A DNA stretch of 64,000 bases from Spirochaetota bacterium (GCA_023438065.1 JAEXRH010000014.1:22959-86958); one strand, 5' to 3'. Positions 18,045 through 56,334 are shown, counted from the stretch's first letter. Notes: generated from the sequence alone by a model not told the origin. A program made the numbers and translations.

Positions 18045-19091
18045 ATGCCAAAACAAAAGAAGGGAGGCCCTGGCGAGGCGTCTCCCGAAAAGCAGATATA
18101 CGATCTCAAACAGCTCCTTGAAATCTCGAAAAGCCTCAATTCGGTCATAGACTTCTCGACCCTTATCGAAGCCATTCTCTATACCTGCATGGGTCAGATG
18201 AAAACCCTCGGCGTCGCCATCTTCACGAAAAAGAACTTTGACGCGTCCTGCTTTCAGTTGAACAGGAATTTTTACGGATTCGAGCTCCAGAACGAATTCG
18301 AGTATTCCATCCCCGAAGACCATCAGCTGGTGAAATTCATCTCGCAGCGGAACGCCTGCATCACCGTCGAGGACATCAGGACGAGCGGCATCCCGATCGA
18401 TCGGTCCATCGAGGGCCTGATCGCGCTCGAACCGACCCTCATCGTCCCGCTCAAGGCGAAAAACCACGTTTCGGGCCTTCTCGTACTCGGCGAGCAGATC
18501 ACGGCGGAACCGTACTCGGAATACGAAAAAGAGCACATCATGAATATCGCCTCCCTCGCCGCGATCGCCATCAGCAATGCCGCGCTCCTCGAGATGACGA
18601 CGACCGACATGATGACGCACCTCAAGCTCAAGCATTACTTCTACACCGTGCTCATCGAGAAACTCGAGCTCAGCGAGTCGCAGCAACTGCCGCTTTCGGT
18701 CCTGATGCTCGACATCGATTTTTTCAAGCGCTTCAACGACACCTACGGCCATGCCTGCGGCGACGTCGTTCTTCAGATGGTCGCGTCGGTGGTCCAGCAA
18801 AACACCCGCAACCAGGACATGGCGGCGCGCTACGGCGGCGAGGAATTCGTGATCATGCTCTGCGACACGAACGCCCAGACGGCGGTCAAGATCGCCGAGC
18901 GCATCCGCACCTCGATCGAGAATCTCGACATCCTCTACGACGGCCAGCATCTCAACCTGACGATATCGGTCGGCGTGGCGGAATACCGGCCCGGAGCGGA
19001 TCAGAACGCGAGAGCTCTCGTCGACCGGGCGGACAAAGCCCTTTACGTCTCGAAGCAATCGGGGCGAAACAAGGTATCCCTTTCGGAATAG
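18045..19091 (+). CDS. GAF domain-containing diguanylate cyclase (348 aa)
   Basis: C-terminal GGDEF domain (DIDFFKRFNDTYGHACGD, RNQDMAARYGGEEF with I-site, ALYVSKQSGRNKV). The N-terminal roughly 170 aa are GAF-like. Confidence 0.9.
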   Translation: MPKQKKGGPGEASPEKQIYDLKQLLEISKSLNSVIDFSTLIEAILYTCMGQMKTLGVAIFTKKNFDASCFQLNRNFYGFELQNEFEYSIPEDHQLVKFISQRNACITVEDIRTSGIPIDRSIEGLIALEPTLIVPLKAKNHVSGLLVLGEQITAEPYSEYEKEHIMNIASLAAIAISNAALLEMTTTDMMTHLKLKHYFYTVLIEKLELSESQQLPLSVLMLDIDFFKRFNDTYGHACGDVVLQMVASVVQQNTRNQDMAARYGGEEFVIMLCDTNAQTAVKIAERIRTSIENLDILYDGQHLNLTISVGVAEYRPGADQNARALVDRADKALYVSKQSGRNKVSLSE

Positions 19092-19807: not shown

Positions 19808-20508
19808 GGGCCTTCCGCGCCCTCGCGTTCGGCGCATGCATCCTCATCGCGGCGCTGCAGGCGTCCGCAGAAGCGCCGCGCGTCGTACGGGTTCCGATAT
19901 GGGTCTTTCTCGAAGCCTATCCCGCTACGGGCTTTGATGGCGGGGGAGCGGACAGCGCCCCGGCCGGCGACGAACGCCCGGCAAGACTCCCTCCCGCCGA
20001 GGATCTCCGCTCGGTCGCGCGATTCGTGCTCGGGGGAATGGTATTCGGCTGGCGTTTCGAGTACGTCCCGAGTGACCGTACCCGGCGGGTCGATGAGGTC
20101 TTTACCCTCGAGCCGATCGCGGAGATTCGCGACGACGATCCCCGATTTTCCCTTTCCGGCGTCGATCCCGACTATCCGCGCGTTTCCGCCTGGGCGGACT
20201 TTCTCATGGACGATACGACCGCGCGCCGTTCGCTGTACTGGAAATCGGTGCAGTTCAGATCCGCCGACGGACGCGGCTACGGGGCCCTGGAGCGCGACAG
20301 CGCCGGGATCAGGGACGCCTACGCGGACGCCGTGCGGGTCGCGGTGCGCTCGTACGCGAGGAAACTCGAGAAAAACAAGCCGAAGGAAATCCGCGGCGAA
20401 GTCCTGCTCCGCGAAAATCCGCGCCTCTTCACCGACGAGGGCCGTTTCGTCGCGGACATCACCGTCCTCGTCAATATCCAGGAAATAGTCCCTTACGCGC
20501 TCTACTGA
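19804..20508 (+). CDS. Secreted or anchored hypothetical protein (234 aa)
   Basis: The ATG at 19804 overlaps the rhomboid stop (ATGA). Signal-like N-terminus MRAFRALAFGACILIAALQASAEAP. The ORF track extends the frame spuriously back to 19114. Confidence 0.6.
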   Translation: MRAFRALAFGACILIAALQASAEAPRVVRVPIWVFLEAYPATGFDGGGADSAPAGDERPARLPPAEDLRSVARFVLGGMVFGWRFEYVPSDRTRRVDEVFTLEPIAEIRDDDPRFSLSGVDPDYPRVSAWADFLMDDTTARRSLYWKSVQFRSADGRGYGALERDSAGIRDAYADAVRVAVRSYARKLEKNKPKEIRGEVLLRENPRLFTDEGRFVADITVLVNIQEIVPYALY

Positions 20509-22190
20509 TCGTCCGGAAACCTGATCGTTATCTCGGAGCCGGAGGAGCCGCTCTTCAGGGACAGGGACCCGCGGATCTGGACGACGAGCGCCTCGACCAT
20601 CTCGAAGCCCATCGTATCCTTCGAGGCGCCATCGCTCTCGAAACCGATACCGTCGTCGGCGAGGGTCAGCCGTATCAGCGAGGGCGTTTCGCGGGCGAAC
20701 GAGACGCGTATGGAACCGCCCGCGCCCCCCGGGAACGCGTGCAGAATGCTGTTCGAGACGAGCTCGTTCAGGATCAGCGCGAGCGGCAAGGCTTTCTCAA
20801 TCGGAAGCGCGACGTCGATCCCCGAGACGGAACAGGACACGTCGGTACCCACGTCTGAGTAGAGCGAGACGAGATAGTCGCACAGCCCCGTGCAGTAGCG
20901 GAGCATCTGGACCCGCTGGACGTCGGAATAGCGATAGATGGTCTCGTACACGAGGGCAAGGGCCATCACGCGGGAATGCGTGGTCGTGAGCGCGCGGCGT
21001 ACCCCGTCGTCGGATGCGTGCCCGATCTGCAGGTTGACCATGCTCGAAAGAAGTTGAAGATTGTCCGATACCCGTTTCTGGAGTTCCTGGAGGAGCTGCT
21101 CCTTCTCGGCGAGGGTGCGCTCGTTGCTCGCGTTCCGTTCCTCGAGCGCCGAGGCCATTTTGTTGAACGATGCGGCAAGCTCGGTGATCTCGTCCGGCGC
21201 CGAGTCCAGCTCGGAACGAATGCTCAGGTTTCCGTCCGCGAGAGCGGCGGTATACTCGGTAAGCCGCTCGATGCGCGCGACGACGAGACGCCGCGCGAGC
21301 CTGATCGAAAGGAAAAAAGCGGCCAGGCAGGAGCCAAGCATGAAAAGAAGGATGCGCAAAACCGGCGTATAGGCCTCGGCGAGCATCCTGTCATAGGGCA
21401 TCCTGACGGAGATATGGATGGAAAGCCCGTTCGCGCTCACGATCCCCGTTGAAACGAGATACGGCACCCCGGAAACGGCGAGCTTTCGCGCGGAGGCCGA
21501 GGGCATCATGAGCGAACGCCGGAAAAGATCCTCGGAAACCCGCTGCCCCAAGGCAGCGCCAGGTTCGTCGGAACTCGCAAAAAGTCTCATCCCGTAATAG
21601 TCGAAGATCTCGAGTATGGTTCCCTGGGGAAGGCGATCGAGCGAAAGTTCCCGGGTGTACTTGCTCAGGCTGAACGCGCAGACGAGATACAGGGATGCGC
21701 CCGAATCGAGCTTGACGGGAAGGGTAAAGGTGATCGCGTGTTCGCCGGTGGAACGGCTCACGATATACTGCCCCGGCGTAAAGAGGCCGGTCTCCTTGGC
21801 GTATTGGAAATACGGCCTGTCCGCGAGGGTGTACCCGATCTTGTCCACGCCGGAGGCGACGACGAGGCCACGCTCGTCGGCGGCGAGAAGAACCGCGTAA
21901 TCGGGATACACGCGCATCAGGTCCTGCAGGTACCGGTTCAACGCGGGGTAATCGGCTTCCTGAACCGCCCTCGTTTGGGATATGGCGACGAGCATCTCTT
22001 CCGCGTTTCGAACGATGAGCCGCTGTTCGTTGGTAAAGCCGTCGCAAAGGTTCGTGATCTGGGTAATGTTTTCGTTTATATAGGATCTTTGGAAAAACAG
22101 CGCGGAATATACCGCTATTGCGACGACGGGAATGACCGCCACGAGCACGACAAGGAAGAACTTCGTCCTGATTTTAACCTTTTCTCGCAC
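20502..22190 (-). CDS. HisKA_2/HWE-type sensor kinase-like protein (periplasmic Cache-like domain, HAMP, HATPase_c) with a non-canonical H-box (562 aa)
   Basis: Two TM helices flank a periplasmic domain of about 250 aa. HAMP-like IERLTEYTAALADGNLSIR. N-box NELVSNSILHAF, then DDGIGF and GFEMVEAL. The H-box position reads ELQKRVSDNLQ where EIHHRVKNNLQ is expected. Confidence 0.8.
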   Translation of the reverse strand: MREKVKIRTKFFLVVLVAVIPVVAIAVYSALFFQRSYINENITQITNLCDGFTNEQRLIVRNAEEMLVAISQTRAVQEADYPALNRYLQDLMRVYPDYAVLLAADERGLVVASGVDKIGYTLADRPYFQYAKETGLFTPGQYIVSRSTGEHAITFTLPVKLDSGASLYLVCAFSLSKYTRELSLDRLPQGTILEIFDYYGMRLFASSDEPGAALGQRVSEDLFRRSLMMPSASARKLAVSGVPYLVSTGIVSANGLSIHISVRMPYDRMLAEAYTPVLRILLFMLGSCLAAFFLSIRLARRLVVARIERLTEYTAALADGNLSIRSELDSAPDEITELAASFNKMASALEERNASNERTLAEKEQLLQELQKRVSDNLQLLSSMVNLQIGHASDDGVRRALTTTHSRVMALALVYETIYRYSDVQRVQMLRYCTGLCDYLVSLYSDVGTDVSCSVSGIDVALPIEKALPLALILNELVSNSILHAFPGGAGGSIRVSFARETPSLIRLTLADDGIGFESDGASKDTMGFEMVEALVVQIRGSLSLKSGSSGSEITIRFPDDQ

Positions 22191-25798: not shown

Positions 25799-27136
25799 CT
25801 AGTTGGTCGAAACGGCTGTCGTTACAGCCTGACAGGGCGTTCGGGAGTAACGACCATACCCGTCGCTGGTGAATACAACGACGTAATATGTCGTGTTCGG
25901 AGTAAGCGCCGAAAAGGAATAACTTCTCGTTGCCGTTCCGAGTGACGAGGAAAATTTTAGACCATCCGTGTTAAGTCCTAAAGTCGGCCAGGTATTCGGC
26001 GCAAACATGTACCCGTTACCATCAATCGTGCCGAACCGCGAATCATTATTGGTTTTAGATAGACCTACCACATAGGTCACGGAATTCTCGCTGTCGTTGT
26101 TCTCGGACCCATTCCAGGTAACGGTAAAACCACTCGTTGTTTTATCGGTAAAATTGAGCAAGGTATTGGAAAACTTCGGGGCATACCAATCATAAGTATG
26201 GGTAATAATGGGATTCGCCTTAAGCTCGGCAGCCGTGAAGACCCTTGAATACTGATTGACCGGAGTGGTGCCGCTTTGAACTGATATCGTATAGCTTGTT
26301 TGATTGTCCTTCACCTTGAACGTCGTCGAATTCGAGGAAATCTGGCCACTTGCCTTTGTATAGGAAGCTGTCTTTCCGTCAGGGTAGGTCACCTGAATCA
26401 ACGAGGGAACGGCAGCAACGGATTGATCCTTAGGGTTAAGCGACGAAGTCAACGCCCTCGTCACGATCGAAAGATCGAAGGTCGGTACCGTTTTAAACGC
26501 GAATCCATTCAGGTTCGTATACCCAAAATCGCCCGCGCTATAATTAGCCGTCGATACGACATTGACGCTCACGCTTACGGTAGGCAATCCGAAACCCGCG
26601 GTAAAAAGATAATCGAGCAAGGTCGCGCCAAGGTTGTTATATGAAATTCGAGAGCCAGAGCGCGGGGCCGCGTAAATAACTTCATTATCGCCATCCAGTA
26701 CCAAAAATTGGGTTATTTTGTATCCTTCCAGAGAATTTGATTCATAATTCCCATTAGAAACTTGTTCGTCCAGGTATAGATTCCCCGAATAGTATTGATT
26801 GCCGAATTTGAACACCTCGATTGCCTCGTTTTCGTAGATGGGTACAGTAAAATATGATGTTCCCGAGGGCGTCATTTTCTTCCAGTAAGATGAAATCGAC
26901 ACTACAATACGCCTGACGTTCGGATCTATCGTCGTTCCCATCGCTGAACGAGCAATTACGGCTTTCCCAACGGCTTGTTTCGTGGTAGAAGAATCAACGA
27001 GATCCGCCTCTGAAAACGAAAATTGCACGGCGGTACGGTTGCCTTGATTGTCATTGCTCGAATCAATGGACCCTGTTCCGTTTGAACACCCTAAAAACAG
27101 TAACACCACGAGAATTCCCGACATAAAACGTTTCAT
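25799..27136 (-). CDS. Surface/periplasmic lipoprotein, S/T/N-rich, with C-terminal fibronectin type III-like domain (445 aa), in a low-GC island
   Basis: Lipobox in MKRFMSGILVVLLFLGCSNG. FN3-like C-terminus (GFTVTWNGSENNDSENSVTYVVGLS ... YSFSALTPNTTYYVVVFTSDGYG). A 100-nt sample at 26641-26740 has 43 G+C, against 67 in the neighbouring pheT. Confidence 0.8.
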   Translation of the reverse strand: MKRFMSGILVVLLFLGCSNGTGSIDSSNDNQGNRTAVQFSFSEADLVDSSTTKQAVGKAVIARSAMGTTIDPNVRRIVVSISSYWKKMTPSGTSYFTVPIYENEAIEVFKFGNQYYSGNLYLDEQVSNGNYESNSLEGYKITQFLVLDGDNEVIYAAPRSGSRISYNNLGATLLDYLFTAGFGLPTVSVSVNVVSTANYSAGDFGYTNLNGFAFKTVPTFDLSIVTRALTSSLNPKDQSVAAVPSLIQVTYPDGKTASYTKASGQISSNSTTFKVKDNQTSYTISVQSGTTPVNQYSRVFTAAELKANPIITHTYDWYAPKFSNTLLNFTDKTTSGFTVTWNGSENNDSENSVTYVVGLSKTNNDSRFGTIDGNGYMFAPNTWPTLGLNTDGLKFSSSLGTATRSYSFSALTPNTTYYVVVFTSDGYGRYSRTPCQAVTTAVSTN

Positions 27137-27867: not shown

Positions 27868-28812
27868 TCAATCCACCCGGGCGAGAAGCGTCTCCACGTC
27901 GAGATCGAGTACGCTCGCGGTAGTCTCGTTCGACAGAGGGGAGGGAGAGCGGCCACGCGCTTGGGAGAGGCGAATCCGTTCGGCATCGAAGAGCTTTCGG
28001 AGGAAGTCGTTTACCATCCCGGAAAAATAGTTGAAGACGACCCCGTTTACCCGCTCTTGCTGCTCGTAATCGAGCCCCTCCCGGCCGTCCTGCGTCCGGA
28101 AAACGAACACATGGATCAGGCACCCGCCGATATCGCGCTTCAGGCACAAGACCGCGTCGACGGTGCATCGCGTTCCCCGGAGATTCATCTGCAGGTTCTT
28201 GATCTTTTCCATGATCGGGATCTCGGGCTCTTCGCCGAGGAACGCGCAGGAAAAATGGCTCACGCTTATGTCGCGGATCGCGCACGAGTACTGGCGCCCC
28301 TTGAAGAGCATGTTCATCCTGAACGCGTCGGAGCATACCGCGCGGAGGTGTTTTCGTTGCCCGTTCGCCCTGTTGGCCGCGAGAACGGACAGAAACAGCG
28401 GCAAGTTTTTGCACTTCTGGTACTCGATCGGTATACAGCCGCAGGTGATTCCAATGTCGTAAAGATACAGCCGCTCGAGACGCCTCGTCTCCTCGAGACT
28501 GTTTCGCTTCTGGAAGGTTACCCCGATTCTCACCCGGTCCCGATAGGTGTATTGCAGCTTCCGGATTAACGCGGCCCAGTCGATCCCTTCGATCCTTCGG
28601 TCAATGTTGAAAAAGAAAATGGTTTCGGCGAAGGCCGAGATCAGGAGGTGTATCTTCGATACGAGGGGACAATAGGGGTCGTCGTGAACGTAGTACGCCT
28701 CATAACCGTGAAGGCAGAAGCTCTTCAGGCACTCTTCCGGGAATACGGAGAGTTCCGGCACGATGAAAAAGGTCTTGATACCCGACCTGACGTCGGATAG
28801 CGCAGTATCCAA
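27868..28812 (-). CDS. PilZ-like domain protein (putative c-di-GMP receptor, 314 aa)
   Basis: RxxxR (QRKHLR) is followed 24 residues later by DISVSHF, where DxSxxG is expected. The N-terminal roughly 140 aa are unassigned. TTG start at 28812 is preceded by GGAGGG. Rich in Cys. Confidence 0.5.
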   Translation of the reverse strand: MDTALSDVRSGIKTFFIVPELSVFPEECLKSFCLHGYEAYYVHDDPYCPLVSKIHLLISAFAETIFFFNIDRRIEGIDWAALIRKLQYTYRDRVRIGVTFQKRNSLEETRRLERLYLYDIGITCGCIPIEYQKCKNLPLFLSVLAANRANGQRKHLRAVCSDAFRMNMLFKGRQYSCAIRDISVSHFSCAFLGEEPEIPIMEKIKNLQMNLRGTRCTVDAVLCLKRDIGGCLIHVFVFRTQDGREGLDYEQQERVNGVVFNYFSGMVNDFLRKLFDAERIRLSQARGRSPSPLSNETTASVLDLDVETLLARVD

Positions 28813-28949: not shown

Positions 28950-28979
28950 TTGTTAAAGCCGTTCCGGTGAGTGTATAAT
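28950..28979 (+). promoter_or_regulatory. Putative promoter of the cyclase operon (TTGTTA-18 nt-TGTATAAT, extended -10)
   Basis: -35 at 28950-28955 and -10 at 28974-28979 with a TG at -15/-14. This implies a 5' UTR of about 115 nt. Confidence 0.4.
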
Positions 28980-29101: not shown

Positions 29102-30943
29102 ATGATTAAAAGCAGGTTTTTCATCCCTATCGGGTTCAAGCTCACGGGAATGGTCTCGCTCATCCTTGGCGTTTCGCTCGCCGGGCTCACCATTGTATCC
29201 ACCCTGTATTTCAGCGCCGAAATAGAGCGCACCCTTCTTACGAATACCCAGGATCGGGTCGAACTCCTTTCCGATAAAATCGAAACCGACCTCATGAACG
29301 AAATGAACGCCGCCCGTCTCATCGCCGCGACCCTGCAAGGCGGACTCGTCTACGGCGGCACGGGGGTGGCGCCGACGGAAGAGCTTCTCGCGCAAAATCC
29401 CGTCATCCGCGCGGTGCACATCCTCGTTCGAAAGGACGGGAACGTCGAGGAATCGGCTGTCGCGGGGGAATCCCGGATCGACGACATCTCGTCCTTCGCC
29501 GCCAGGGAAAACGTCGCGCTCCTGTCCGCTTTCGCGAACCAGCCGGCGATACTCAACGCCTCGCCCGAGTCGGGCGAGCCCGCGCTCGCGATCCTCTTTC
29601 CCTATCAATTGCTGTCCGATACGGAAGCGGACAGCGTCGTTCTCGCCGAGCTCGACGGAGAACCCTTTATCCTGGCGGTCGCGGCGAGGGAACTCTACGT
29701 GAACAGCATCGTGGACGCCTCGGGGAATCTCGTCGTGCACGTCGACCGGGAACTCATGATGACGAGGCCGAACCTCTCGGGCGACGCCCTCGTGAAGGAC
29801 GCGATGAAGGGCGAGACTACCCTGAAGCAGATGACCTTCGAGGACTCGGCCGGGACCGAGAGCATCGGCTCCTGGAAGCGATTCTTCGACGGACAGCTCG
29901 TCGCGGTCTCGACCGTGCGGAAGGAGACCGCCATGGCGGGCGCCTACGCAATGCAAAGAAGAAACAGCCTCATCACGATACTCATCCTCTGCGCCTCGAT
30001 GCTCCTCCTCTTTCTCTTCTCGAAAACCCTCACGACGCCCATACAGAGCCTCATGGCGGGCGCGCTCAAGATCGGAGAGGGAGACTTCTCGGTGCGCGTC
30101 GGCGTAAAGACGAGCGACGAGATCGGCAGGCTCTCGGATACCTTCAACACCATGACGAAAGGCCTCGAGGAGCGCGACAAGATCAAGAGCGCGTTCGGCA
30201 AATTCGTCAACAAGGAGGTCGCGGAGCGGGTCATCCGCGGCGAGGTTCAGCTCGGGGGCGAAAGCAGGACGGCGGCGATCTTCTTCTCGGACATCAGGTC
30301 GTTCACCGCGATCTCGGAGCGGCTTACCCCGCACGAGGTCGTCGAGTTCCTCAACGAGTACATGACGGCGATGGTCGCGTGCGTGAACAGGACGCACGGC
30401 GTCGTCGACAAATACATCGGCGACGCGATCATGGCGGAATGGGGAGTCCCGTACTCCACGGGCAACGACACGGAAAACGCCGTGAACGCCGCGCTCCTCA
30501 TGCGAAAGGCGCTCGCGGAGTTCAACCGGGGCCGCGGCGGGGAAAAGAAGCCGATCATCAGGATCGGCAGCGGCATCAATACCGGAGAGGTCATCGCGGG
30601 GCAGATCGGCTCGCTCGAGCGCATGGAATACACCTGCATCGGCGACGCGGTAAACCTCGCCTCGCGCATCGAGAGCCTCAACAAGGTATTCAAGACTGAC
30701 ATTCTCATCTCCGAGCATTCCTGGTCGCTCGTCAAGGACGCCTTCAGGGTCGAACCGATGAAAAAGATCCTCGTGAAGGGCAAGGCGGAGCCGCAGCAGA
30801 TCTACGCGGTGCTCGGAAGACTCGACGATCCCGGCTCGTACAGGAACGTACACGAGCTGCGCGAGCACCTCGGGTATGAAGACGTCGACCTCGCGACGGT
30901 CAACGCGAACGCCGAAGAGAAGAAATATGAGATTGTTGAGTAA
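29102..30943 (+). CDS. Class III adenylate/guanylate cyclase with periplasmic Cache-like sensor and HAMP domain (613 aa)
   Basis: TM1, a periplasmic region of about 250 aa, then TM2. HAMP region PIQSLMAGALKIGEGDFSVRVGVKTSDEIGRLSDTFNTM. Cyclase core AAIFFSDIRSFT, VDKYIGDAIMAEWG, IGSGINTGEVIAGQIG, YTCIGDAVNLASRIE. I chose the ATG at 29102. Alternatives are the TTG at 29042 and the ATG at 29057. Confidence 0.9.
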   Translation: MIKSRFFIPIGFKLTGMVSLILGVSLAGLTIVSTLYFSAEIERTLLTNTQDRVELLSDKIETDLMNEMNAARLIAATLQGGLVYGGTGVAPTEELLAQNPVIRAVHILVRKDGNVEESAVAGESRIDDISSFAARENVALLSAFANQPAILNASPESGEPALAILFPYQLLSDTEADSVVLAELDGEPFILAVAARELYVNSIVDASGNLVVHVDRELMMTRPNLSGDALVKDAMKGETTLKQMTFEDSAGTESIGSWKRFFDGQLVAVSTVRKETAMAGAYAMQRRNSLITILILCASMLLLFLFSKTLTTPIQSLMAGALKIGEGDFSVRVGVKTSDEIGRLSDTFNTMTKGLEERDKIKSAFGKFVNKEVAERVIRGEVQLGGESRTAAIFFSDIRSFTAISERLTPHEVVEFLNEYMTAMVACVNRTHGVVDKYIGDAIMAEWGVPYSTGNDTENAVNAALLMRKALAEFNRGRGGEKKPIIRIGSGINTGEVIAGQIGSLERMEYTCIGDAVNLASRIESLNKVFKTDILISEHSWSLVKDAFRVEPMKKILVKGKAEPQQIYAVLGRLDDPGSYRNVHELREHLGYEDVDLATVNANAEEKKYEIVE

Positions 30944-32975
30944 GGGCGAATCCGCGTTCGTCTTGCTCGTAATCCTCTGCTTCGGGGCAGCCGCGACCGC
31001 GCTCGTGCGCGACATCACGGGGGCCAGGGAGCTTCGCGGAACGCAGGTCGGCACGATCACCTGGAAGGATCGCTACGCCGAGCAGCGGCAGGAAGGCACG
31101 GGACTATGGGTGGCCGCCGTGCGCGACGGACCCGTCTACAACCACGACACGATTCGCACGGGGGAGAACTCCTCCGCGACGATACGACTCGCGAACGACA
31201 CGGTGATCTCGCTCGACGCGGGGTCGATGGTGTACGTCCGCGTTGACGCCGCCACGGAGAAGGCGACGATCTCGATCAAGGGAGGCTCGATCAAGGTCGC
31301 GCAGGGCGAAAAGGCCGCCCCGGTCGAGCTCGAGACGAACTCCGGCTCGGTCGCGCTCGAGAAAGGCGCGGTCAGGATAACCGGCGACGAAACGAAGACG
31401 ACCGTCCGCGCGGAGACCCCGGCAGCGACGATCGTGTCGAGCGGCGATACGAAGGCGATAACCCTCGACGCCGCGTCAAACTTCGACGTCGCGAACGGGG
31501 AGATCGTCGCCGCGCCCGTATCGATAACCTCTCCCGGGCAAAACGAGTATCTCGTCGCCGAGGGGAAAAAGGCCGAGGTCGTCTTCTCGTGGTCGCCCGC
31601 CGACATGCCGCTTCGGGTAACGATAGCCCGAGACGCGGCGTTCCGGAAGCCGGCCGTCGAAGGGGAGGCCCTCGCGAGCGGCTCCGTTCAAACCCTTTCA
31701 GAAGGACGTTATTGGTGGCGCGTCGACGAAACCGGGGAGACGCGGTCGTTCACCGTCGCCGAAGGCGGCGTCTGCGCGCCCGTAAGCCCCGTCGATAAAT
31801 CCTTCCTGAAGGCGGGAGAGTTCGTCACCGTCCCCTTTGCCTGGGCAAAACGGGGAAACGCGGATTCGTATCGCCTTGACGTCTTCGCCGAAGGGACGGG
31901 AGACACCCCGATAATCCAGCGCATGGTGACACAACGAAGCACGATGATCGACATTGCCGACGAAGGCGAGTATTCCTGGTCGGTTACCGCCTTCTACGGC
32001 CCGAACCGCGTCGCCTTTACCTCGGCAAGGGAGCGCTTCTCGATCGTTACCGCGACCCTCGCGGTCCCGGCGACGCCGACGGTCGCGCGCGGCGTCGCGT
32101 CCTGGGCCCCGGTAGCGGGCGCGGAAGCCTACGAGATCAGAATCAGCCCGGAAGAGAGCGGATCGCCCGTGCAATACGGCGCGATCGTCAACGCCTCCTC
32201 CGCGAGCCTGAAAAACGCCGTGTCGACGGGCGCCTGGTACGTTTCGGTTCGATCCAAGGCGGGTTCGCTGACTTCCGATTGGTCAAATCCCGCGAAATAC
32301 GAAATCCTTCCCCCTCAGCCCCTCTCGATATCGGCGCCCGCGAACGGCGCGGTGGTCGACGGCTCCTCCGGAAAGGTTTCCCTTTCCTGGATCGATCGAA
32401 ACGACGGCAATCGCTACCGCGTGACGGTGTCGAGATCCGCGGACCTCGCGAACCCGCTCGGAGAGCTCGTTCCCTATCGACCAACAGGCCAGTTTACCCT
32501 TCCCAAGGAAGAACGGGGCGGTCTTTACTACTGGAAGGTCGTTCTCCTCGACGCGGCCGGCGCGCCGGTCAGCGAATCGCCGATCTCGTCATTCAGGGTA
32601 CGCGAGCCGATGCCGGCGCCGGAACCAGTATTCCCGATAAACGGGAAGCAGCTCGACATCAACGCGCTTTCGGCGCTCTCGCTCGAGTGGAAGCCCGTCA
32701 CCGACGCATCCTTTTACACCGCGCGGCTTTATCGCATGACGGCGGGGATCCCGCAATCGCTCGGTTCCTGGAAAACCGTCGAACCGCGTGTCACGATCAC
32801 CGACTTCACGAAACTCGCGCTCGACTCATTCTCGTGGGAAGTGGTCGCGGTCAAAACGGAAGAAGACGGAAGCGAAACGCCCAGCGCTCCCGCGAAGGCC
32901 TATTTCAGGATCGTGCAAGCAAAGGTTCTTTCGGCGCCTTCCATCAAGATCATGAAATCCCGAGGAGCGTTTTAA
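30927..32975 (+). CDS. FecR-domain protein with N-terminal TM anchor and multiple FN3/Ig-like periplasmic repeats (682 aa)
   Basis: The ATG at 30927 overlaps the cyclase 3' end by 17 nt. TM segment AFVLLVILCFGAAATALV. FecR-like block GTITWKDRYAEQR...VYNHDTIRTGENSSATIRLANDTVISLDAGSMV. At least five repeats carry a W-x(2-5)-[VA/D]-x(2-4)-Y-x-[IVL] signature. Confidence 0.8.
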   Translation: MRLLSKGESAFVLLVILCFGAAATALVRDITGARELRGTQVGTITWKDRYAEQRQEGTGLWVAAVRDGPVYNHDTIRTGENSSATIRLANDTVISLDAGSMVYVRVDAATEKATISIKGGSIKVAQGEKAAPVELETNSGSVALEKGAVRITGDETKTTVRAETPAATIVSSGDTKAITLDAASNFDVANGEIVAAPVSITSPGQNEYLVAEGKKAEVVFSWSPADMPLRVTIARDAAFRKPAVEGEALASGSVQTLSEGRYWWRVDETGETRSFTVAEGGVCAPVSPVDKSFLKAGEFVTVPFAWAKRGNADSYRLDVFAEGTGDTPIIQRMVTQRSTMIDIADEGEYSWSVTAFYGPNRVAFTSARERFSIVTATLAVPATPTVARGVASWAPVAGAEAYEIRISPEESGSPVQYGAIVNASSASLKNAVSTGAWYVSVRSKAGSLTSDWSNPAKYEILPPQPLSISAPANGAVVDGSSGKVSLSWIDRNDGNRYRVTVSRSADLANPLGELVPYRPTGQFTLPKEERGGLYYWKVVLLDAAGAPVSESPISSFRVREPMPAPEPVFPINGKQLDINALSALSLEWKPVTDASFYTARLYRMTAGIPQSLGSWKTVEPRVTITDFTKLALDSFSWEVVAVKTEEDGSETPSAPAKAYFRIVQAKVLSAPSIKIMKSRGAF

Positions 32976-32977
32976 CC

Positions 32978-34486
32978 ATGTACCGTTTGCGAACCGCGGT
33001 AGCCGCTATCATTGGCCTGTTCCTCATGAGCGCCGGGTCTTTCGCCCAAACCGGCGAAAGCCTTCCCTACTACATCGAATGGGATGCCGTCGAGGGCGCG
33101 GGAGGTTACGACATTGAGGTCACGACCGACGACGGGAAACCGGCGCTCGAGCGACGGATGGGTCCCGCCGAGACCAGCATCGAACTCGCCCTGCCGGCGG
33201 GCAACTACCGGTTCAGAATCTCGACACTCAACAAGTTTCTCCACGCGGACTCCACTTCCGACTGGATAGCCTTCAAAGTGCTCGCGTACGGGCCGCCGAC
33301 GATAACGAGGGTCGGTCAGGCGAAGATAGCGCCCGGGACGCAGGCGAGCGTTTCCGTTCAGGCGGATATGGTCTCCTCAAAAGCCCGCGCGACGCTCGTC
33401 TCGCCGACGGGAAAGAGCATTCCCCTCACCATTAAAAAAGCGAAGAACAGATCGTTCACGCTCACGAGCGCGCCGCTTTCAGAGCGGGGCTCATACACCC
33501 TCGTACTCACGAATCCCCCTTCCTTCTCGGCGGAAAAAAAGAACGCGGTCACCGTGGAATACCCGACGCCGACGATCGTATCAGTCGAGCCGGGAATGGT
33601 TTCCCGCGTGGCGCTCGAGGATGCTCGGGACGCGGGGTCGGCGCTATCGCTTATCGTCAAGGGCAAGAACTTCTCGCCTGAGGCGACCCTTATCCTCAAG
33701 GGCGGAGAGGCGGATAATCCCGTCGCGCTCGAGAACCCGCGCGTACAGCCGGTCGAGATCTCGAGCGACATCCCCGCGACGCTCGAAGCCGGCTCCTACG
33801 CCGTGTTCCTCCGAAACGCGCCGGATCTGGCGGAAATCCCGGCCGGAACGCTCGTTGTCGAAAAGAAACCTGAACCGGTGGCGGAAAAGGAACCCGCCGA
33901 AAAACCGCCGAAGGAACCGAAGGCGGATAAGCCCGCGGGGGACAAAACGGTTCGCGCCTGGATCGCGCTTGGCGCCTCGGGCGGCGCGGGCTTCGTGTTC
34001 GGCGATTGGAACGACGTCTACGGGGAACCGCTGCCGTCGGGATCCGCGTTCGCGAACCTCTATCTCTCGCCCGCGCTTTCGCCGGAGGAAGACCGCGGCA
34101 TCCGCTATTCCTTCGGTCTCCGGGCCGATTTCGCGTTCATGAAAAACGACGGTGCAGGAATCTACGTGAAAAGCGACGCGCAAACCCTCTCGATAACCGT
34201 GGCGCCCGCGGCCGAATACGCTTTCGGGAAATTCCGCGTACGGGGCCGAATCGGCGGGGGAATCAGTTTTCTCAAGATTACGGCCAACACCATAACCTCC
34301 GGTTCTAAAACCGAGGAAACCTCGCTTGACCTGGCGGGAACCGCCGGACTCAGCCTTGAATACCTTCCGTTCCCGCGATTTGCCGTTGGCCTCGACAACG
34401 CATTGTTCTACGTCGCGAATCGAGACCCCATGACCCGGTACGCCGGAACCCTCTCCGCCTCGTACGCGATTCCGATCAAACGATAG
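32978..34486 (+). CDS. Outer-membrane-anchored repeat protein: signal peptide, FN3/IPT-like domains, P/E/K-rich linker, C-terminal beta-barrel-like domain (502 aa)
   Basis: The ATG at 32978 is 2 nt after the FecR-gene stop, with GAGGAG upstream. Signal peptide MYRLRTAVAAIIGLFLMSAGSFAQ. YYIEWDAVEGAGGYDIEV repeat and KKPEPVAEKEPAEKPPKEPKADKPAGDK linker. The C-terminal roughly 170 aa show an alternating hydrophobic pattern and an aromatic-rich end. The ORF track extends the frame spuriously back to 32279. Confidence 0.75.
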   Translation: MYRLRTAVAAIIGLFLMSAGSFAQTGESLPYYIEWDAVEGAGGYDIEVTTDDGKPALERRMGPAETSIELALPAGNYRFRISTLNKFLHADSTSDWIAFKVLAYGPPTITRVGQAKIAPGTQASVSVQADMVSSKARATLVSPTGKSIPLTIKKAKNRSFTLTSAPLSERGSYTLVLTNPPSFSAEKKNAVTVEYPTPTIVSVEPGMVSRVALEDARDAGSALSLIVKGKNFSPEATLILKGGEADNPVALENPRVQPVEISSDIPATLEAGSYAVFLRNAPDLAEIPAGTLVVEKKPEPVAEKEPAEKPPKEPKADKPAGDKTVRAWIALGASGGAGFVFGDWNDVYGEPLPSGSAFANLYLSPALSPEEDRGIRYSFGLRADFAFMKNDGAGIYVKSDAQTLSITVAPAAEYAFGKFRVRGRIGGGISFLKITANTITSGSKTEETSLDLAGTAGLSLEYLPFPRFAVGLDNALFYVANRDPMTRYAGTLSASYAIPIKR

Positions 34487-34534
34487 CGCTTTAACTACGT
34501 TCTTAATGCTTTTTTATACTACCGGAGGAGATCA

Positions 34535-35518
34535 ATGAAACAGCATCTTAAATGTGCGATAACGGGAGCCGCTTGGTGGAAACCGTTTATCGCGTTCGTA
34601 GCCCTTTTTCTTGCAATAATGATCCCGAATGAGCTCGCTTCGCTTAACCCGCCCGAGGCGCCGGGAAAGGCGTTCGCGACCCTGCTTTTCACCCTTACCC
34701 TGCAAGGCCTTCTCGTCGTCATCCAGGCCGCGTTTTCGGTCGTTCTCATGCGGATCGCGTTCCCCCTCGTTTCCGTCGGCGACAAGCCTTTCGCCTTTAC
34801 CGGGAAAGTCGGCGAATACGTCAAGATCAATATCTTCGGGTTTCTTCTCTGTATCGTCACGCTCGGGTTTTACATACCCGCGTATGCCCGCAAGATCACC
34901 GCGTATCTGGCCGGGAGCACCCGACTCGACGGCGAGAGCGCTGCCTTCCTGTCGAAGACCGGCAAGCTCATGAAATACTACGTGCTTGCGCTGCTCGTTC
35001 CCGTTATCGCGGTATGCGTTCTGTTCGTCGTCGTTGTCGCGAAAACGGGATATGTCTCGTCGGTCGCGGGATCCCTTGGCCCCGTGATACTCGCGCTCTA
35101 TCTCGTCCTGTTCCTCGCGATGATCCCGTTCCTCTATCTCGCGTACCGGTGGACCGTTAACTTCGGCTGGAAGGACCTGACGATTTCGTGGAATACCCGC
35201 TTCGGACCGTCGTGCGCGTTTATCGCGGGCCAATTCGCCCTGCTCGTCATCACCCTTGGCGTACTCTGGCCGATCGCGGTCGTCAACCTCGCACGCTACT
35301 TCGCGGAGAGGACCGTCATCCGGAAAAACGGAACGGAAACGGGCCATCTCGGATTTGACGGCACGAGGGGTAAGGGCTTCACCCTTCTCTGGGGTCAGAC
35401 CCTCCTGACCGTCATCACCCTCGGCATCTACCTGCCCTGGGCATACGCGAATTGCGTGCGGTTCTTCGTCAACGGAACGTATTTCGAGGGGAAACAAGAG
35501 CTCCTCGATCAGGCATAA
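34535..35518 (+). CDS. DUF898 (YjgN) family membrane protein (327 aa)
   Basis: Duplicated DUF898 signature (FTGKVGEYVKINIFGFLLCIVTLGFYIPAY and GFTLLWGQTLLTVITLGIYLPWAY). GGAGGAG lies upstream of the ATG. Confidence 0.8.
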   Translation: MKQHLKCAITGAAWWKPFIAFVALFLAIMIPNELASLNPPEAPGKAFATLLFTLTLQGLLVVIQAAFSVVLMRIAFPLVSVGDKPFAFTGKVGEYVKINIFGFLLCIVTLGFYIPAYARKITAYLAGSTRLDGESAAFLSKTGKLMKYYVLALLVPVIAVCVLFVVVVAKTGYVSSVAGSLGPVILALYLVLFLAMIPFLYLAYRWTVNFGWKDLTISWNTRFGPSCAFIAGQFALLVITLGVLWPIAVVNLARYFAERTVIRKNGTETGHLGFDGTRGKGFTLLWGQTLLTVITLGIYLPWAYANCVRFFVNGTYFEGKQELLDQA

Positions 35519-35525
35519 ATAGATA

Positions 35526-35556
35526 AGCCCCCCGAAACGCGTCGCTTCGGGGGGCT
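35526..35556. terminator. 11-bp GC hairpin between the convergent DUF898 and pspC-domain genes
   Basis: AGCCCCCCGAA (35526-35536) pairs with TTCGGGGGGCT (35546-35556). The U-tract is short. A second, weaker hairpin lies at 35563-35585. Confidence 0.5.
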
Positions 35557-35590
35557 TTCGGCCCCGTTCGCTATCGGCCGAACGGCCGCG

Positions 35591-42155: not shown

Positions 42156-42962
42156 ATGCGAATCATCGACTTTCACGCGCACATCTACCCCGCGAAGATC
42201 GCGGAACGCGCGACGCAGGCAATCAGCGATTTTTACGACGCGCCGATGGCGTTTAACGGCTCCGTCGCCGAGCTCCTGACAAGCGGCGACACGATAGGCG
42301 TCGAGCGTTACATCGTGCACTCGACGGCGACGAAGAGCGACCAGGTACGCTCGATCAACGATTTTATCATCGGGGAAACGCGGAAAGAGCCGCGCTTCGT
42401 CGGCTTCGGCACCCTTCATCCCGACTTCGACGAAACCCGCGACGAGCTCGACCGGATCATCTCGCTCGGCCTCAAGGGCATCAAGCTCCATCCCGATTTT
42501 CAGCGTTTCGAGATCGACTGCGCGAAGATGGACAGCGCCTACGAGCAGATAGCCGCAGCGGGAATTCCGGTCCTCGTGCACGCGGGCGACGCCCGATACG
42601 ATTTCTCGGGGCCGCGGAGGATCGCGCGCGTCCTTGACCGCCATCCCGCGATCAAGCTCATTGCCGCGCACTTCGGGGGGTATACCGAATGGGACGAAGC
42701 CCTCGAAATGCTCGCGGGGCGCGATCTCTGGCTCGATACCTCAAGCACCTTCTGGAAGATCGAGCCTTCGATCGCGCGAAAGATTATCGAAAAGCACGGG
42801 ATCTCGCGCTTTCTCTTCGGCTCGGACTTCCCGATGTGGCGGCACGACGACGAGCTCGCGCGCTTCCTTGCCCTCGGGCTCACTCAGGCGGAAAACGAGG
42901 CCATCCTCGCGGGAAACGCCGACGCGCTGTTGGCGTCCATTCCCGCCGCAAAAGCGCGCTAA
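42156..42962 (+). CDS. Amidohydrolase-2 family TIM-barrel metal-dependent hydrolase (268 aa)
   Basis: MRIIDFHAHIYP start, GIKLHPDFQ, VLVHAGD, FGSDFPMW. I chose the ATG at 42156. Confidence 0.8.
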   Translation: MRIIDFHAHIYPAKIAERATQAISDFYDAPMAFNGSVAELLTSGDTIGVERYIVHSTATKSDQVRSINDFIIGETRKEPRFVGFGTLHPDFDETRDELDRIISLGLKGIKLHPDFQRFEIDCAKMDSAYEQIAAAGIPVLVHAGDARYDFSGPRRIARVLDRHPAIKLIAAHFGGYTEWDEALEMLAGRDLWLDTSSTFWKIEPSIARKIIEKHGISRFLFGSDFPMWRHDDELARFLALGLTQAENEAILAGNADALLASIPAAKAR

Positions 42963-45781
42963 CGCGCGAGGTACGCGAGAAAATCGTCGAACGGCAGGGG
43001 TCTCGCGACGACGAAACCCTGCACGATATCGCAGCCGCGCGCGCGAAGGCGGTCGAGCTGATCGAGGGTCTCGACCCCTTCGGCCACCGAGGAAAGCCCG
43101 AATGCCCGGGCCATCGATATGATCGCGGAAACGATATCCCCGCCCGACTGGCTGTCGTCCATCGAGCGGACGAAAGACTGGTCGATTTTCAGGCAATCGA
43201 CGGGCAGGCGATTGAGATACTGCAGGGAGCAGTATCCCGTACCGAAATCGTCGATCGCGAATTTTACCCCCATTTCGCGGATCTTTCGCATGATATCGCT
43301 CACGTGCGCGATATTCCGCATGAAGCCGGACTCGGTAACCTCCAATTGAAGCATCTCGCCGGGCAACCCCGAAATCGACAGCGCCGACCGGACGCGCTCG
43401 ACGAAATTCCCCGAGTCAAACTGGCGCGCCGCGACGTTAACCGAGACGGGCACGCGCAGTCCCGTATCAAGCCACCTTTTCGCGTCCGCGCAGGCTTGCG
43501 CAAGAACCCAGTCCCCGAGCGGCGAGATGAACCCGGTTTCCTCGGCGACCGGAAGAAAATCCCCGGGTGGAATGATCAGGTTATCCTCGCGATTCCAGCG
43601 AATCAGGGCTTCCGCCCCCGAAAGACCCGCCGGACTTCCCGGTCTGGCCTCCGCGATCAGCGTCTGCGGCTGATAGTAGAGCCTGAACTCGTTCAGCTCG
43701 AGCGCCTTGTGCATCTTCGTCTCTATCTCGAGGCGGCCGCGATTCGCGCGTTCCATGTCGGAGGAGGCGTAACAGTACGCGCCGCGACCGGCCTCTTTCG
43801 CGAGGTACATCGCCGCGTCGCCCTTTCTGAGCAAGGTCTCCGCGTCCAGGCCGTCCTTGGGATACAACGCAATCCCGATGCTCGCGCCGACGTAGACCTC
43901 GGAACCGTCGATGTCGAAGCTTTCCGACATACCGCGAACCACCGACGACGCGACGATCCCGGCGTTTTCCTCGCGGGAGAGATCGGGCAATATCATGGTG
44001 AACTCGTCCCCGCCGATCCTGCAAAGCGTGTCCGAATCCCGGATGCATTTCGCGAGACGGGTCGAGACCTTCACGAGGAGCGAATCGCCGGCGACGTGCC
44101 CGAGGGAATCGTTCACGTTCTTGAAGCGATCGAGATCGATGAACAGGAGCGCGAACGGCGAGGACGAACGTTTCGCGCAGGCGATCTGGTGCTCGAGCCG
44201 GTCGGAGAACAGCATCCGGTTCGGAAGATTCGTGAGCGGATCGTAATACGCGAGATGATTCAGCCGCTCCTCCGCCTCCTTGATCACCGAAATGTCGGAT
44301 GAGACGCTTATGTAGTTGAGCGGTTGGCCCGTCTCGTCGCGCAGCACGTTAATCGTTTGCCACTTCGGGCAGAGAGATCCGTCCTTCCTGCGGTCCCACA
44401 CCTCTCCCTCCCAATGTCCCGTCTCCGATACGGCCGCCCGGATCCGCTCGAAAAAGTCGTCGTCGTGCCGTCCCGAGTTGAGCATGCGCCCGTTCCTTCC
44501 AAGCAGCTCGTCGCGGGTGTATCCGCTCATCGCGCACATGGCGTCGTTCATGTCGATGATGTTTCCCCCGAGGTCCGTAATGATGACGGCCTCGCTCGTG
44601 TTCTCGAGGACCTTCCGGAACATCTCGAGCTTTCCGTTGATCGTTATCAGCGCGGCCGTCCGTTCCGCCACGAGATTCTCGAGGTTCTCGTTCGTCTTTC
44701 GTACCGCCTCGTGCGCGTCTCGCACGCGCGTGTTCATTTCCGCGATGACCTTAGCGATATGACCGATCTCGTCATGTCGGGAAAAGAGCGCCTTCATCAG
44801 TTCGTCCGGCTTGGCGGGATCGCCGGCGCCGGCCGAAGACAAAGCCTTGCGCGCGCCCGACTCGAGGATGATCGAGTCGACGACGTTCTCGAGAAGACCC
44901 AACGGAGTGACGACCCAATAGCGAAAGGCGACGCTGAGCGAGAAAATGAAAAAAATGGTCAGGGTCCCGAAAAGGACGAGCATGCTTGCCGTCACGTTCG
45001 CGCTTTGCGCCTTAAGCGCCCGCGGGGTAGACGTCTTGATGATGAACGCGGGCATGCCGAAGGAATCGGCGAACCGGATATAGCCCGTTATCGCGGAATC
45101 GGACTGTAACCGGAACATCCCGGATTCGATATTCTCGTGCCTACGGACATTCTGAAGGCCGCTCGGGAAGGGCTCGCGAAAGAGTTCCACGTACACCCCG
45201 ATCCGCTCGCGCAGGCTCTCGATGAACGTTTCGTTCACGCTTCTTGCCATGAGGAAGAAGCCCGCGGAAGGGCCAGTCCCGTCGGAATGAAGGATCGGCA
45301 CGGAAACCGCGAGAACAGGATTCCCGTCATGAACCTGAAAGTCGGAGACGGGCTCCCTGATCCGGCGACGTTCGCTCCCCGCGACGATATCGATAAAGAA
45401 ATCGCAAACCCTTTCCCGGCCTTCCCCGTCGCGGCACCGCGCGTAAATTTTTCTCCCGCTCGCGTCGTACAGAGCGAAAACCGATACGTTGAGATTGTCG
45501 AAGGGCGTCGGGCCTATGTCATTTTCGATATACTGCGGATTCCCGCCGCGGGCGAATAGCCAGGTAGAGTCCCAAACGGCATAATCCCGGACGGTCACCT
45601 CGAGGCTCGAAGACTCCACCTTGATCGCGTTGATCGCGCGATCGATGTCGGAACGCGCGATATCGGCCTCGATCGCGAGGAATTTCGTGTATACCATTAC
45701 CGTGATGACCGACAGCAGACCAAGGGTATAGAGGCTTATAAACGCGACGGTCAGTACCAGCAGCTTGTTTCTGATCCGCAC
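42959..45781 (-). CDS. CHASE4-HAMP-PAS-GGDEF-EAL c-di-GMP turnover protein (940 aa)
   Basis: CHASE4-like RDYAVWDSTWLF between two TM helices, and a PAS region (EAVIITDLGGNIIDMNDAMCAMSGYTRDELLG). GGDEF domain (RDSDTLCRIGGDEF) and EAL domain (GAEALIRW, QLEVTES, AIDDFGTGYCSLQYL, KIDQSFV). GTG start is preceded by AGGAGAGGAG. Confidence 0.92.
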   Translation of the reverse strand: MRIRNKLLVLTVAFISLYTLGLLSVITVMVYTKFLAIEADIARSDIDRAINAIKVESSSLEVTVRDYAVWDSTWLFARGGNPQYIENDIGPTPFDNLNVSVFALYDASGRKIYARCRDGEGRERVCDFFIDIVAGSERRRIREPVSDFQVHDGNPVLAVSVPILHSDGTGPSAGFFLMARSVNETFIESLRERIGVYVELFREPFPSGLQNVRRHENIESGMFRLQSDSAITGYIRFADSFGMPAFIIKTSTPRALKAQSANVTASMLVLFGTLTIFFIFSLSVAFRYWVVTPLGLLENVVDSIILESGARKALSSAGAGDPAKPDELMKALFSRHDEIGHIAKVIAEMNTRVRDAHEAVRKTNENLENLVAERTAALITINGKLEMFRKVLENTSEAVIITDLGGNIIDMNDAMCAMSGYTRDELLGRNGRMLNSGRHDDDFFERIRAAVSETGHWEGEVWDRRKDGSLCPKWQTINVLRDETGQPLNYISVSSDISVIKEAEERLNHLAYYDPLTNLPNRMLFSDRLEHQIACAKRSSSPFALLFIDLDRFKNVNDSLGHVAGDSLLVKVSTRLAKCIRDSDTLCRIGGDEFTMILPDLSREENAGIVASSVVRGMSESFDIDGSEVYVGASIGIALYPKDGLDAETLLRKGDAAMYLAKEAGRGAYCYASSDMERANRGRLEIETKMHKALELNEFRLYYQPQTLIAEARPGSPAGLSGAEALIRWNREDNLIIPPGDFLPVAEETGFISPLGDWVLAQACADAKRWLDTGLRVPVSVNVAARQFDSGNFVERVRSALSISGLPGEMLQLEVTESGFMRNIAHVSDIMRKIREMGVKFAIDDFGTGYCSLQYLNRLPVDCLKIDQSFVRSMDDSQSGGDIVSAIISMARAFGLSSVAEGVETLDQLDRLRARGCDIVQGFVVARPLPFDDFLAYLAR

Positions 45782-56266: not shown

Positions 56267-56334
56267 CCCGCGTCACGAACCGGGGAACCGTTTCTGTTAG
56301 AAAACGGGCCCCCGGTATGCTATACTTTCCCCCT

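Follow-up and report, generated by a model that had tools for sequence, protein, structure and literature searches.

Bacteria encode large numbers of receptor-type class III cyclases, whose inputs are mostly obscure. The question of what such an enzyme responds to is raised by a three-gene locus at positions 29102-34486 of a 64,000-nucleotide (nt) stretch of DNA from a Spirochaetota bacterium of the Treponema family (GCA_023438065.1 JAEXRH010000014.1:22959-86958); this whole stretch is referred to here as the window. The first gene encodes a class III cyclase with a periplasmic sensor region, the second a membrane-anchored protein with a FecR domain followed by five FN3/immunoglobulin (Ig)-like domains, which we call FecR-Ig, and the third a signal-peptide protein with related domains and a predicted C-terminal β-barrel. 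An earlier note, made from the sequence of the window, had described the trio as a candidate signalling module that spans the envelope, and this arrangement remained the best reading. What, then, does the cyclase report on, and what do its two partners contribute? We propose, at a probability of roughly 55%, that the locus encodes a periplasm-spanning sensory complex with cyclic AMP (cAMP) as its output, in which FecR-Ig would be a co-receptor tether that controls cAMP synthesis. The module formed by the cyclase and FecR-Ig probably uses cAMP to signal the state of the cell envelope. The proposal is built on the gene organisation and domain content of the locus, on the absolute linkage of the cyclase and FecR-Ig genes, and on a complementary distribution of modules at the distal end of FecR-Ig.

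The cyclase and FecR-Ig genes are linked and overlap

The cyclase gene (29102-30943) encodes 613 amino acids, the FecR-Ig gene (30927-32975) 682 and the gene for the putative outer-membrane-anchored partner (32978-34486), here the third gene, 502; all three, and the features within them given below, lie on the + strand. The end of the cyclase gene and the start of the FecR-Ig gene overlap by 17 nt (30927-30943), with the FecR-Ig ATG placed inside TAT-GAG, which encodes the Tyr-Glu of KYEIVE at the cyclase C-terminus. A gap of 2 nt follows the FecR-Ig gene, and a GAGGAG stands directly 5' of the third gene. These boundaries, the overlap and the gap had been given in the earlier note and were all confirmed from the open reading frames (ORFs) of the window. 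The public gene calls contain all three proteins with identical sequences and identical starts, and one cluster member carries the label 'adenylate cyclase' from its source in those calls.

Relatives of FecR-Ig were collected by an exhaustive phmmer search with the window protein; word-index searches reached only close relatives or generic Ig/FN3 proteins. The search returned 2,624 representative proteins with E <1e-3 and 209 representative clusters with E <1e-30, and the relatives were mostly 680-720 amino acids long and aligned end to end. As judged from these alignments, the FecR-Ig proteins are a large family of fixed architecture. There was no NCBIfam model for the family, and a literature search found no description of a cyclase/FecR-Ig family. 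The contigs of eight relatives with 23-56% identity were inspected, and in seven of them a dCache/HAMP/Guanylate_cyc gene lay directly upstream, nearly always overlapping, while the contig of the eighth (L022) ended after a 121-amino-acid upstream fragment. A signal-peptide protein was encoded downstream of FecR-Ig in all eight.

A scan of metagenomes with the family motif PVYNxD[ST]IRT gave 119 loci, about 11 of them chance matches as expected from the information content of the pattern, and the remaining loci formed 70 clusters at ~80% identity. The cyclase was adjacent and upstream in every dereplicated cluster with at least 700 nt of upstream sequence (64/64 clusters, 101/101 loci), and these adjacent cyclases share the same sensor type. 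The linkage spanned relatives of 20-56% identity and a genomic G+C of 35 to 61%. Stop and start overlapped by 8-38 nt in 63 of 65 clusters, most often by 17 nt (18 clusters), 38 nt (15) or 20 nt (12), with other lengths being rarer. The FecR-Ig ATG fell within the codons for the cyclase C-terminus, where it spanned the TAT-GAR of a conserved K-Y-E in the clusters with an overlap of 17 or 20 nt. The FecR-Ig start was always in the same relative frame to the cyclase end, in the window (30915-30943) as well as in the related loci. These results supported the earlier description of the three genes as one translational unit, and the arrangement is conserved and translationally coupled. At the overlap, a single stretch of DNA is constrained in two frames.

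A genome scan with narrow patterns derived from a seven-sequence alignment returned four loci, all from Spirochaetota; the other labelled members came from Treponemataceae, Spirochaetales and Spirochaetota metagenome-assembled genomes. The trio is also carried by plasmid pTS2 of the cultured Treponema saccharophilum JCM 32279 (L142, NZ_AP025290.1 370880-377544), where the genes overlap by 38 nt and 11 nt and are annotated as 'adenylate/guanylate cyclase domain-containing protein', 'FecR family protein' and 'hypothetical protein'. This cultured carrier makes experiments possible. The plasmid is a 382-kb secondary replicon, and a gene for an InlB B-repeat protein comes after the trio.

The cyclase has a complete set of catalytic residues

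The domain order of the cyclase was a first transmembrane segment (TM1; amino acids 6-39, 29117-29218), a periplasmic sensor domain (amino acids 40-285, 29219-29956), a second transmembrane segment (TM2; amino acids 286-312, 29957-30037), a HAMP domain (amino acids 305-356, 30014-30169) and a class III catalytic domain (amino acids 390-568, 30269-30805). Both transmembrane segments were placed by a hydropathy scan, which showed a single N-terminal hydrophobic segment in FecR-Ig and another in the third protein. Hidden Markov model (HMM) searches placed the catalytic and HAMP domains well above their cut-offs, with 92.3 bits for Guanylate_cyc (PF00211, cut-off 21.9) and 51.2 bits for HAMP (PF00672, cut-off 25). 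The Cache-like domain of the earlier note was the less certain part. The periplasmic stretch of ~250 amino acids between the two transmembrane segments, a size consistent with dCache_1, matched dCache_1 (PF02743) only weakly and below the cut-off in the window cyclase (15 bits, E 0.018, cut-off 45), whereas the E-values of orthologous cyclases were lower (4e-4 for L005, no more than 1e-5 for L019), with matches recorded as 'weak' in L001, L013 and L021. Because of this difference between the window cyclase and its orthologues, the region is classed by sequence as a divergent dCache-like domain. No match to CHASE2 was found in the cyclase in a Pfam scan, and the architecture is dCache-like plus HAMP.

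In a PDB search, the catalytic domain was nearest to solved bacterial adenylyl cyclases (E 1e-31). The motifs were read off the translation and the roles of the residues were assigned from general knowledge of class III cyclases: FFSDIRS and IGDAIMA hold the two metal-binding Asp, NLASR the Asn and Arg of the transition state, and the Lys of DKYIGD and the Asp of GDAVN form the pair that specifies adenine. Membership of the class was read from FFSDIRS, (DK)YIGDAIMA and IGDAVNLASRIE. The two metal Asp, the Lys and Asp pair, the Asn and the Arg make up what we take to be the complete ATP-specific class III set. The metal-binding and transition-state residues had been called intact before, and this was borne out, with all canonical catalytic residues present. 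By its residues, the cyclase is predicted to be catalytically competent and of the adenylyl type, and the view that it is the only output domain of the trio was supported.

FecR-Ig is a probable signal-anchored stalk with a conserved membrane-proximal FecR domain

In FecR-Ig, ~8 predicted cytoplasmic residues precede a signal anchor (amino acids 9-32, 30951-31022), which is followed by the membrane-proximal FecR domain (amino acids 38-200, 31038-31526) and five tandem FN3/Ig-like domains (amino acids 201-665, 31527-32921). An AlphaFold2 model with a predicted local distance difference test (pLDDT) score of 82 showed a transmembrane helix at 12-32, a β-rich region at ~40-200 and five FN3/Ig sandwiches up to amino acid 663, in agreement with the 'at least five' repeats counted previously. 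Foldseek matched the repeats to multi-domain Ig/FN3 arrays; for this model and that of the third protein alike, eukaryotic Ig/FN3 arrays dominated the matches, and the FecR domain itself was not informed by them. The FecR assignment was upheld by PF04773 (41.4 bits, cut-off 24) and by structure: a profile of 54 FecR-Ig family members matched the FecR-type domain of PupR (6ovk/6ovm, E 2.4e-4) as well as 4m0h, a putative anti-sigma factor. A PDB sequence search with the FecR region alone gave no match. When conservation was compared by region, amino acids 38-125 were the best-conserved part of the protein.

Across the 54 family members the hydrophobic segment was an uncharged run of ~19 residues in which neither an AXA nor a Cys was conserved, and because of this the N-terminus is likely a signal anchor. 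The Gly-Thr after the transmembrane segment was considered as a FoxR-like self-cleavage site and rejected, since the Thr (T43) varies among relatives. The cytoplasmic part of the family proteins is only ~8-15 residues long, so any contact with the cyclase would have to be made in the membrane or the periplasm. Pfam found no N-terminal anti-sigma domain in the few residues before the transmembrane segment, and the NCBIfam FecR equivalog scored 14 bits against a cut-off of 385. Thus, on its sequence, FecR-Ig is not an anti-sigma factor.

The third protein is a probable anchor and the distal end of the stalk is variable

The third protein begins with a signal peptide (amino acids 1-24, 32978-33049, ending in ...SFAQ/TG), seen as a low-confidence N-terminal helix in the model. 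It is followed by an FN3-like domain (amino acids 29-105, 33062-33292, 'YYIEWDAVEGAGGYDIEV...') that is the hallmark of third genes across the family, two further Ig/FN3-like domains supported by the AlphaFold2 model and Foldseek (amino acids 106-296, 33293-33865), a disordered linker rich in Pro, Glu and Lys (amino acids 297-323, 33866-33946) and a C-terminal eight-stranded β-barrel in the model (amino acids 324-502, 33947-34483). The linker varies in length in the alignment, and its pLDDT was below 50 at 299-321. Compared to FecR-Ig, the repeats are of a common type, as had been noticed from a shared signature. This relationship is real, in that an HMM of the N-terminal domain of the third protein matched FecR-Ig (E 9e-8), but the signature is a generic FN3-like one. 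Amino acids 32-192 (33071-33553) were also matched by the Leptospira NCBIfam family LIC11435 (E 3e-22, under its cut-off). That family is listed as an RCC1-like protein, and the same N-terminal module may thus sit on a propeller in Leptospira.

The β-barrel proposed in the earlier note stood up in structure and fell short in sequence. The AlphaFold2 model of the third protein (pLDDT 77) contained eight strands of 11-22 residues at amino acids 325-501, and Foldseek matched this barrel to OmpA (9fzd_A, TM-score 0.70) and OmpX (1qj9, TM-score 0.62), while the sequence HMMs stayed below threshold for the window protein, including the NCBIfam model CglE (E 0.0017). Orthologous third proteins scored 28.5 bits (L021) and 21.1 bits (L013) with OMP_b-brl, for which the threshold is 28.7. 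In an eight-stranded barrel both termini face the periplasm. Because of this, and since the external loops in the model have only ~3-10 residues, the Ig domains would be periplasmic and the barrel looks like an anchor and not like a surface receptor. The 'surface' part of the relay suggested previously is therefore not favoured by the model.

Every third gene examined encoded a signal peptide and the same FN3-like domain, whatever its C-terminus, and this N-terminal domain was the best-conserved region of the protein. The C-termini varied between OmpA/OmpX-like or OMP_b-brl barrels and, in one lineage, ankyrin repeats. Counted among the clusters with enough downstream sequence, a third gene followed 25 of the 30 FecR-Ig genes with a complete five-Ig C-terminus. 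It followed none of six FecR-Ig variants of ~1,000 amino acids, which have a PEGA domain and a BamB-like PQQ_2 propeller in place of the last Ig region (Fisher p = 2e-4 for 0/6 against 25/30, a test that overstates independence as the clusters are phylogenetically related). A variant of ~640 amino acids from termite-gut samples ended in an OmpA-family peptidoglycan-binding domain, and it too lacked the third gene. Conservation of the trio as such was thus confirmed for the cyclase/FecR-Ig pair, which was present in all 64 clusters, but not for the third gene, which is not universal. To judge from these sequences, other variants have fused anchoring domains instead of the third gene. Because the third gene and the fused distal domains are distributed in a complementary way, the far end of the stalk appears always to carry or recruit a module that binds or anchors to outer layers of the envelope.

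A proposed mechanism and its alternatives

The mechanism that we favour is as follows; its physical contacts and topology, the sign of the regulation and the kind of signal are inferred. The cyclase would be an inner-membrane homodimer in which TM2 and HAMP link the dCache-like domain to the catalytic domain. FecR-Ig would be made in fixed proportion to the cyclase by translational coupling and held in the inner membrane by its signal anchor, with the FecR domain sitting beside, or in contact with, the sensor and transmembrane region of the cyclase. This contact is proposed because FecR-Ig has no cytoplasmic domain, its membrane-proximal FecR domain is the best conserved and the pair is translationally coupled. 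The five FN3/Ig domains would form a stalk of ~20 nm, as estimated from typical Ig/FN3 domain dimensions, that reaches toward the outer layers of the envelope. Its tip would be fixed to the outer membrane by the third protein, whose N-terminal FN3 domain may dock to the stalk while the barrel anchors. In the sister variants, the same job could be done by the fused OmpA-type peptidoglycan-binding domain or by the fused PEGA domain and BamB-like propeller. Changes at the distal end would then travel along the stalk to the FecR domain and modify cyclase activity. Possible inputs include the binding of a partner, the spacing of the envelope, its strain or integrity, and a periplasmic or outer-membrane-associated ligand. 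The interchangeable distal modules, that is the barrel partner, the peptidoglycan-binding domain and the propeller, lead to a testable hypothesis of how envelope state could be turned into cAMP, and the role of the FecR domain would be extended beyond the control of sigma factors.

A more specific form of this mechanism is a mechanical or geometric sensor, in which a stalk of defined length, held in the inner membrane beside the cyclase and attached at its tip to the outer membrane or peptidoglycan, converts changes in the spacing between the membranes, or in strain, into cAMP. Inputs could then be osmotic swelling, a damaged outer membrane or a change of shape caused by the periplasmic flagella. 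We regard this form as unlikely as it stands, but if true it would be a second-messenger counterpart of the 'periplasmic ruler' of the Rcs type.

Several observations weigh against the co-receptor tether. The dCache-like domain could sense a small ligand alone. The third gene was missing beside five of the 30 full-length FecR-Ig genes, and the relatedness of the clusters bears on how far their distribution can be counted as independent support. The barrel of the window protein was under the sequence threshold for OMP_b-brl (PF13505, 13.7 against 28.7 bits, 0.074), and the protein ends in ...IPIKR and not in an aromatic residue. Among the called genes of the window there was no Crp/cNMP-binding protein and no phosphodiesterase, and taxonomic labels were available only for members from Spirochaetota.

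The first of these points leads to a different role for the partners, in which the dCache-like domain is the sole sensor, of a small ligand, and the stalk with its anchor carries no signal but only keeps the cyclase in place, or stable, at a defined site of the envelope. A dCache-HAMP-cyclase is already a complete receptor by itself, the third gene is dispensable in some lineages, and the barrel, the OmpA domain and the propeller are all typical anchoring modules. However, the absolute linkage and the conserved translational coupling in 64 of 64 clusters argue for an obligatory partner, and the best-conserved region of that partner is the FecR domain, a known signal-relay module, and not the anchor end. 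We regard a purely scaffolding role as rather unlikely. The homology of the FecR domain to PupR and to anti-sigma-type structures, the FecR-like signal-anchor topology and the 1:1 coupling would also suit a mechanism of inhibition and release, in which FecR-Ig keeps the cyclase inactive, much as FecR-type regulators restrain their sigma factors, until a distal signal induces proteolysis of the stalk in the site-1/site-2 style of FecR-like regulators. Such a mechanism seems distinctly improbable to us, given that there is no cytoplasmic domain to sequester anything, that the Gly-Thr after the transmembrane segment is not invariant and that no protease gene is linked.

The remaining two explanations detach the cyclase from its neighbours. 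Ig/FN3 arrays are common in adhesins, and FecR-Ig and the barrel protein might be structural envelope proteins or adhesins that lie beside a cyclase by chance. This was rejected as very improbable, being contradicted by the neighbourhood statistics: the linkage was found in 64 of 64 clusters over 20-56% identity and a G+C of 35 to 61%, with a conserved overlap. Even less credence can be given to classical cell-surface signalling, where the FecR protein would be an anti-sigma factor that connects a TonB-dependent transducer to an extracytoplasmic function (ECF) sigma factor, with the cyclase being unrelated. The match to PF04773 is all that speaks for it. FecR-Ig has ~8 cytoplasmic residues without an anti-sigma N-domain and falls far below the NCBIfam FecR equivalog cut-off (14 against 385 bits), and neither an ECF sigma factor nor a TonB-dependent receptor was found in the window or in any gene-annotated relative; a FecIRA-type system was thus rejected at the sequence level. 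The earlier remark that no sigma factor is encoded at the locus agrees with this, as there was none among the called genes of the window.

Comparison with known systems

The earlier note knew of no characterised relay from the surface to cAMP or cGMP with this architecture. This was too strong, since NsrA-CyaK and the clusters of FecR and CHASE2 genes precede it, and the cyclase/FecR-Ig module is a widespread variant of a known pairing of FecR-domain proteins with receptor cyclases. In Sinorhizobium meliloti, the CHASE2 adenylate cyclase CyaK needs the outer-membrane β-barrel protein NsrA to perceive its signal, in a system that includes CyaD1/D2 and acts through cAMP-Clr; the barrel of NsrA spans amino acids 600-1200, with acidic surface loops. 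Reportedly, nsrA directly adjoins cyaK, and the periplasmic N-terminal half of NsrA, ~600 amino acids long, is said to include a FecR-like domain. To our knowledge, NsrA-CyaK is the only genetically characterised relay from the outer membrane to a cyclase. As judged from the descriptions of NsrA, both systems would place an outer-membrane β-barrel protein upstream of an inner-membrane class III adenylate cyclase with a cAMP output, and in both the gene for an envelope protein adjoins that for the cyclase, here with a 17-nt overlap in the window and adjacency in 64 of 64 clusters. In contrast to CyaK, the window cyclase has a dCache-like sensor with HAMP and not CHASE2, and in contrast to NsrA the FecR domain belongs to a protein of its own, which is anchored in the inner membrane and carries five Ig domains, with a small eight-stranded barrel on a third protein.

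A conserved cluster in Campylobacterota, for which there is a genomic description only, encodes a CHASE2 adenylate cyclase, a phosphodiesterase, an outer-membrane protein with a FecR domain and a TPR protein. It resembles the trio in that genes for a receptor adenylate cyclase and for an envelope protein with a FecR domain lie together, and these were proposed there to act in one pathway, but its sensor domain is a different one, and both an Ig stalk and a separate barrel partner are lacking. Unlike in that cluster, no phosphodiesterase or TPR gene was linked to the trio among the called genes of the window. In the 'BiofilmReg' operon of Burkholderia, a LysM-FecR protein (COG4254) is encoded beside a CHASE2 histidine kinase. 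The periplasmic FecR protein, the cell-wall-binding module and the overlapping genes for membrane receptors are shared features that parallel the variant with the OmpA domain, whereas the output of a histidine kinase with a response regulator, the CHASE2 sensor and the absence of an Ig stalk set the operon apart from the trio.

FecI-FecR-FecA and PupI-PupR-PupB share with FecR-Ig a homologous periplasmic FecR (CJM-type) domain and a single transmembrane segment. Compared to these systems, the window lacks the cytoplasmic anti-sigma domain, the ECF sigma factor and the TonB-dependent transducer, and Ig repeats follow the FecR domain; no STN/FecR_C subdomain was detected in FecR-Ig. In the RcsF-IgaA-Rcs system, a component tethered to the outer membrane signals across the periplasm to an inner-membrane protein, and the output depends on the geometry and integrity of the envelope. 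Here the analogy is one of function and gives only a mechanistic lead, as Rcs signals through a phosphorelay and its proteins are unrelated to those of the trio.

Genomic surroundings of the locus

A promoter-like site, identified in a consensus scan by its consensus match alone, precedes the cyclase gene (28950-28979, + strand; TTGTTA-18-TATAAT, 10 of 12 matches). A second one, at 34491-34520, precedes the gene for a DUF898 membrane protein (34535-35518, + strand, 96 bits in Pfam), which starts 48 nt after the trio and is followed by a strong 15-bp hairpin at 35525-35557. The DUF898 gene was considered as a fourth core gene and rejected, since it was linked only in a close clade of Treponemataceae; it is possibly a clade-specific fourth gene. 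In a relative with 35% identity, the gene for a Crp-family cNMP-binding regulator lies on the opposite strand, five genes upstream from the cyclase (L016, 1-264, - strand); no other candidate for a cAMP receptor was seen close to a member of the family.

Directly upstream of the operon, a divergent ORF of 314 amino acids (27868-28812, - strand) had no match in Pfam or NCBIfam and was kept at this position only in the relative with 56% identity. It contains a stretch, RKHLR...DISVS, that resembles a candidate PilZ motif. Further upstream lies a lipoprotein-like ORF of 445 amino acids with a C-terminal fn3 domain (25799-27136, - strand), in a stretch with a lower G+C (0.52 compared to ~0.60). 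This ORF has no counterpart in the 56% relative, which is syntenic otherwise.

The window is rich in other signalling genes. Those at 5001-5954 (+ strand), 18045-19091 (+), 42959-45781 (-), 3371-4906 (-) and 20502-22190 (-) encode PAS-GGDEF, GAF-GGDEF and CHASE4-PAS-GGDEF-EAL proteins, a 4HB methyl-accepting chemotaxis protein and a dCache-HAMP-HisKA_2 kinase. This histidine kinase, at 20502-22190, had only the HAMP region in common with the cyclase. At 56317-62417 (+ strand), a tight cluster of the Bat/aerotolerance type encodes a MoxR-type AAA ATPase, a DUF58 protein and a transglutaminase/TPR protein of 1,277 amino acids.

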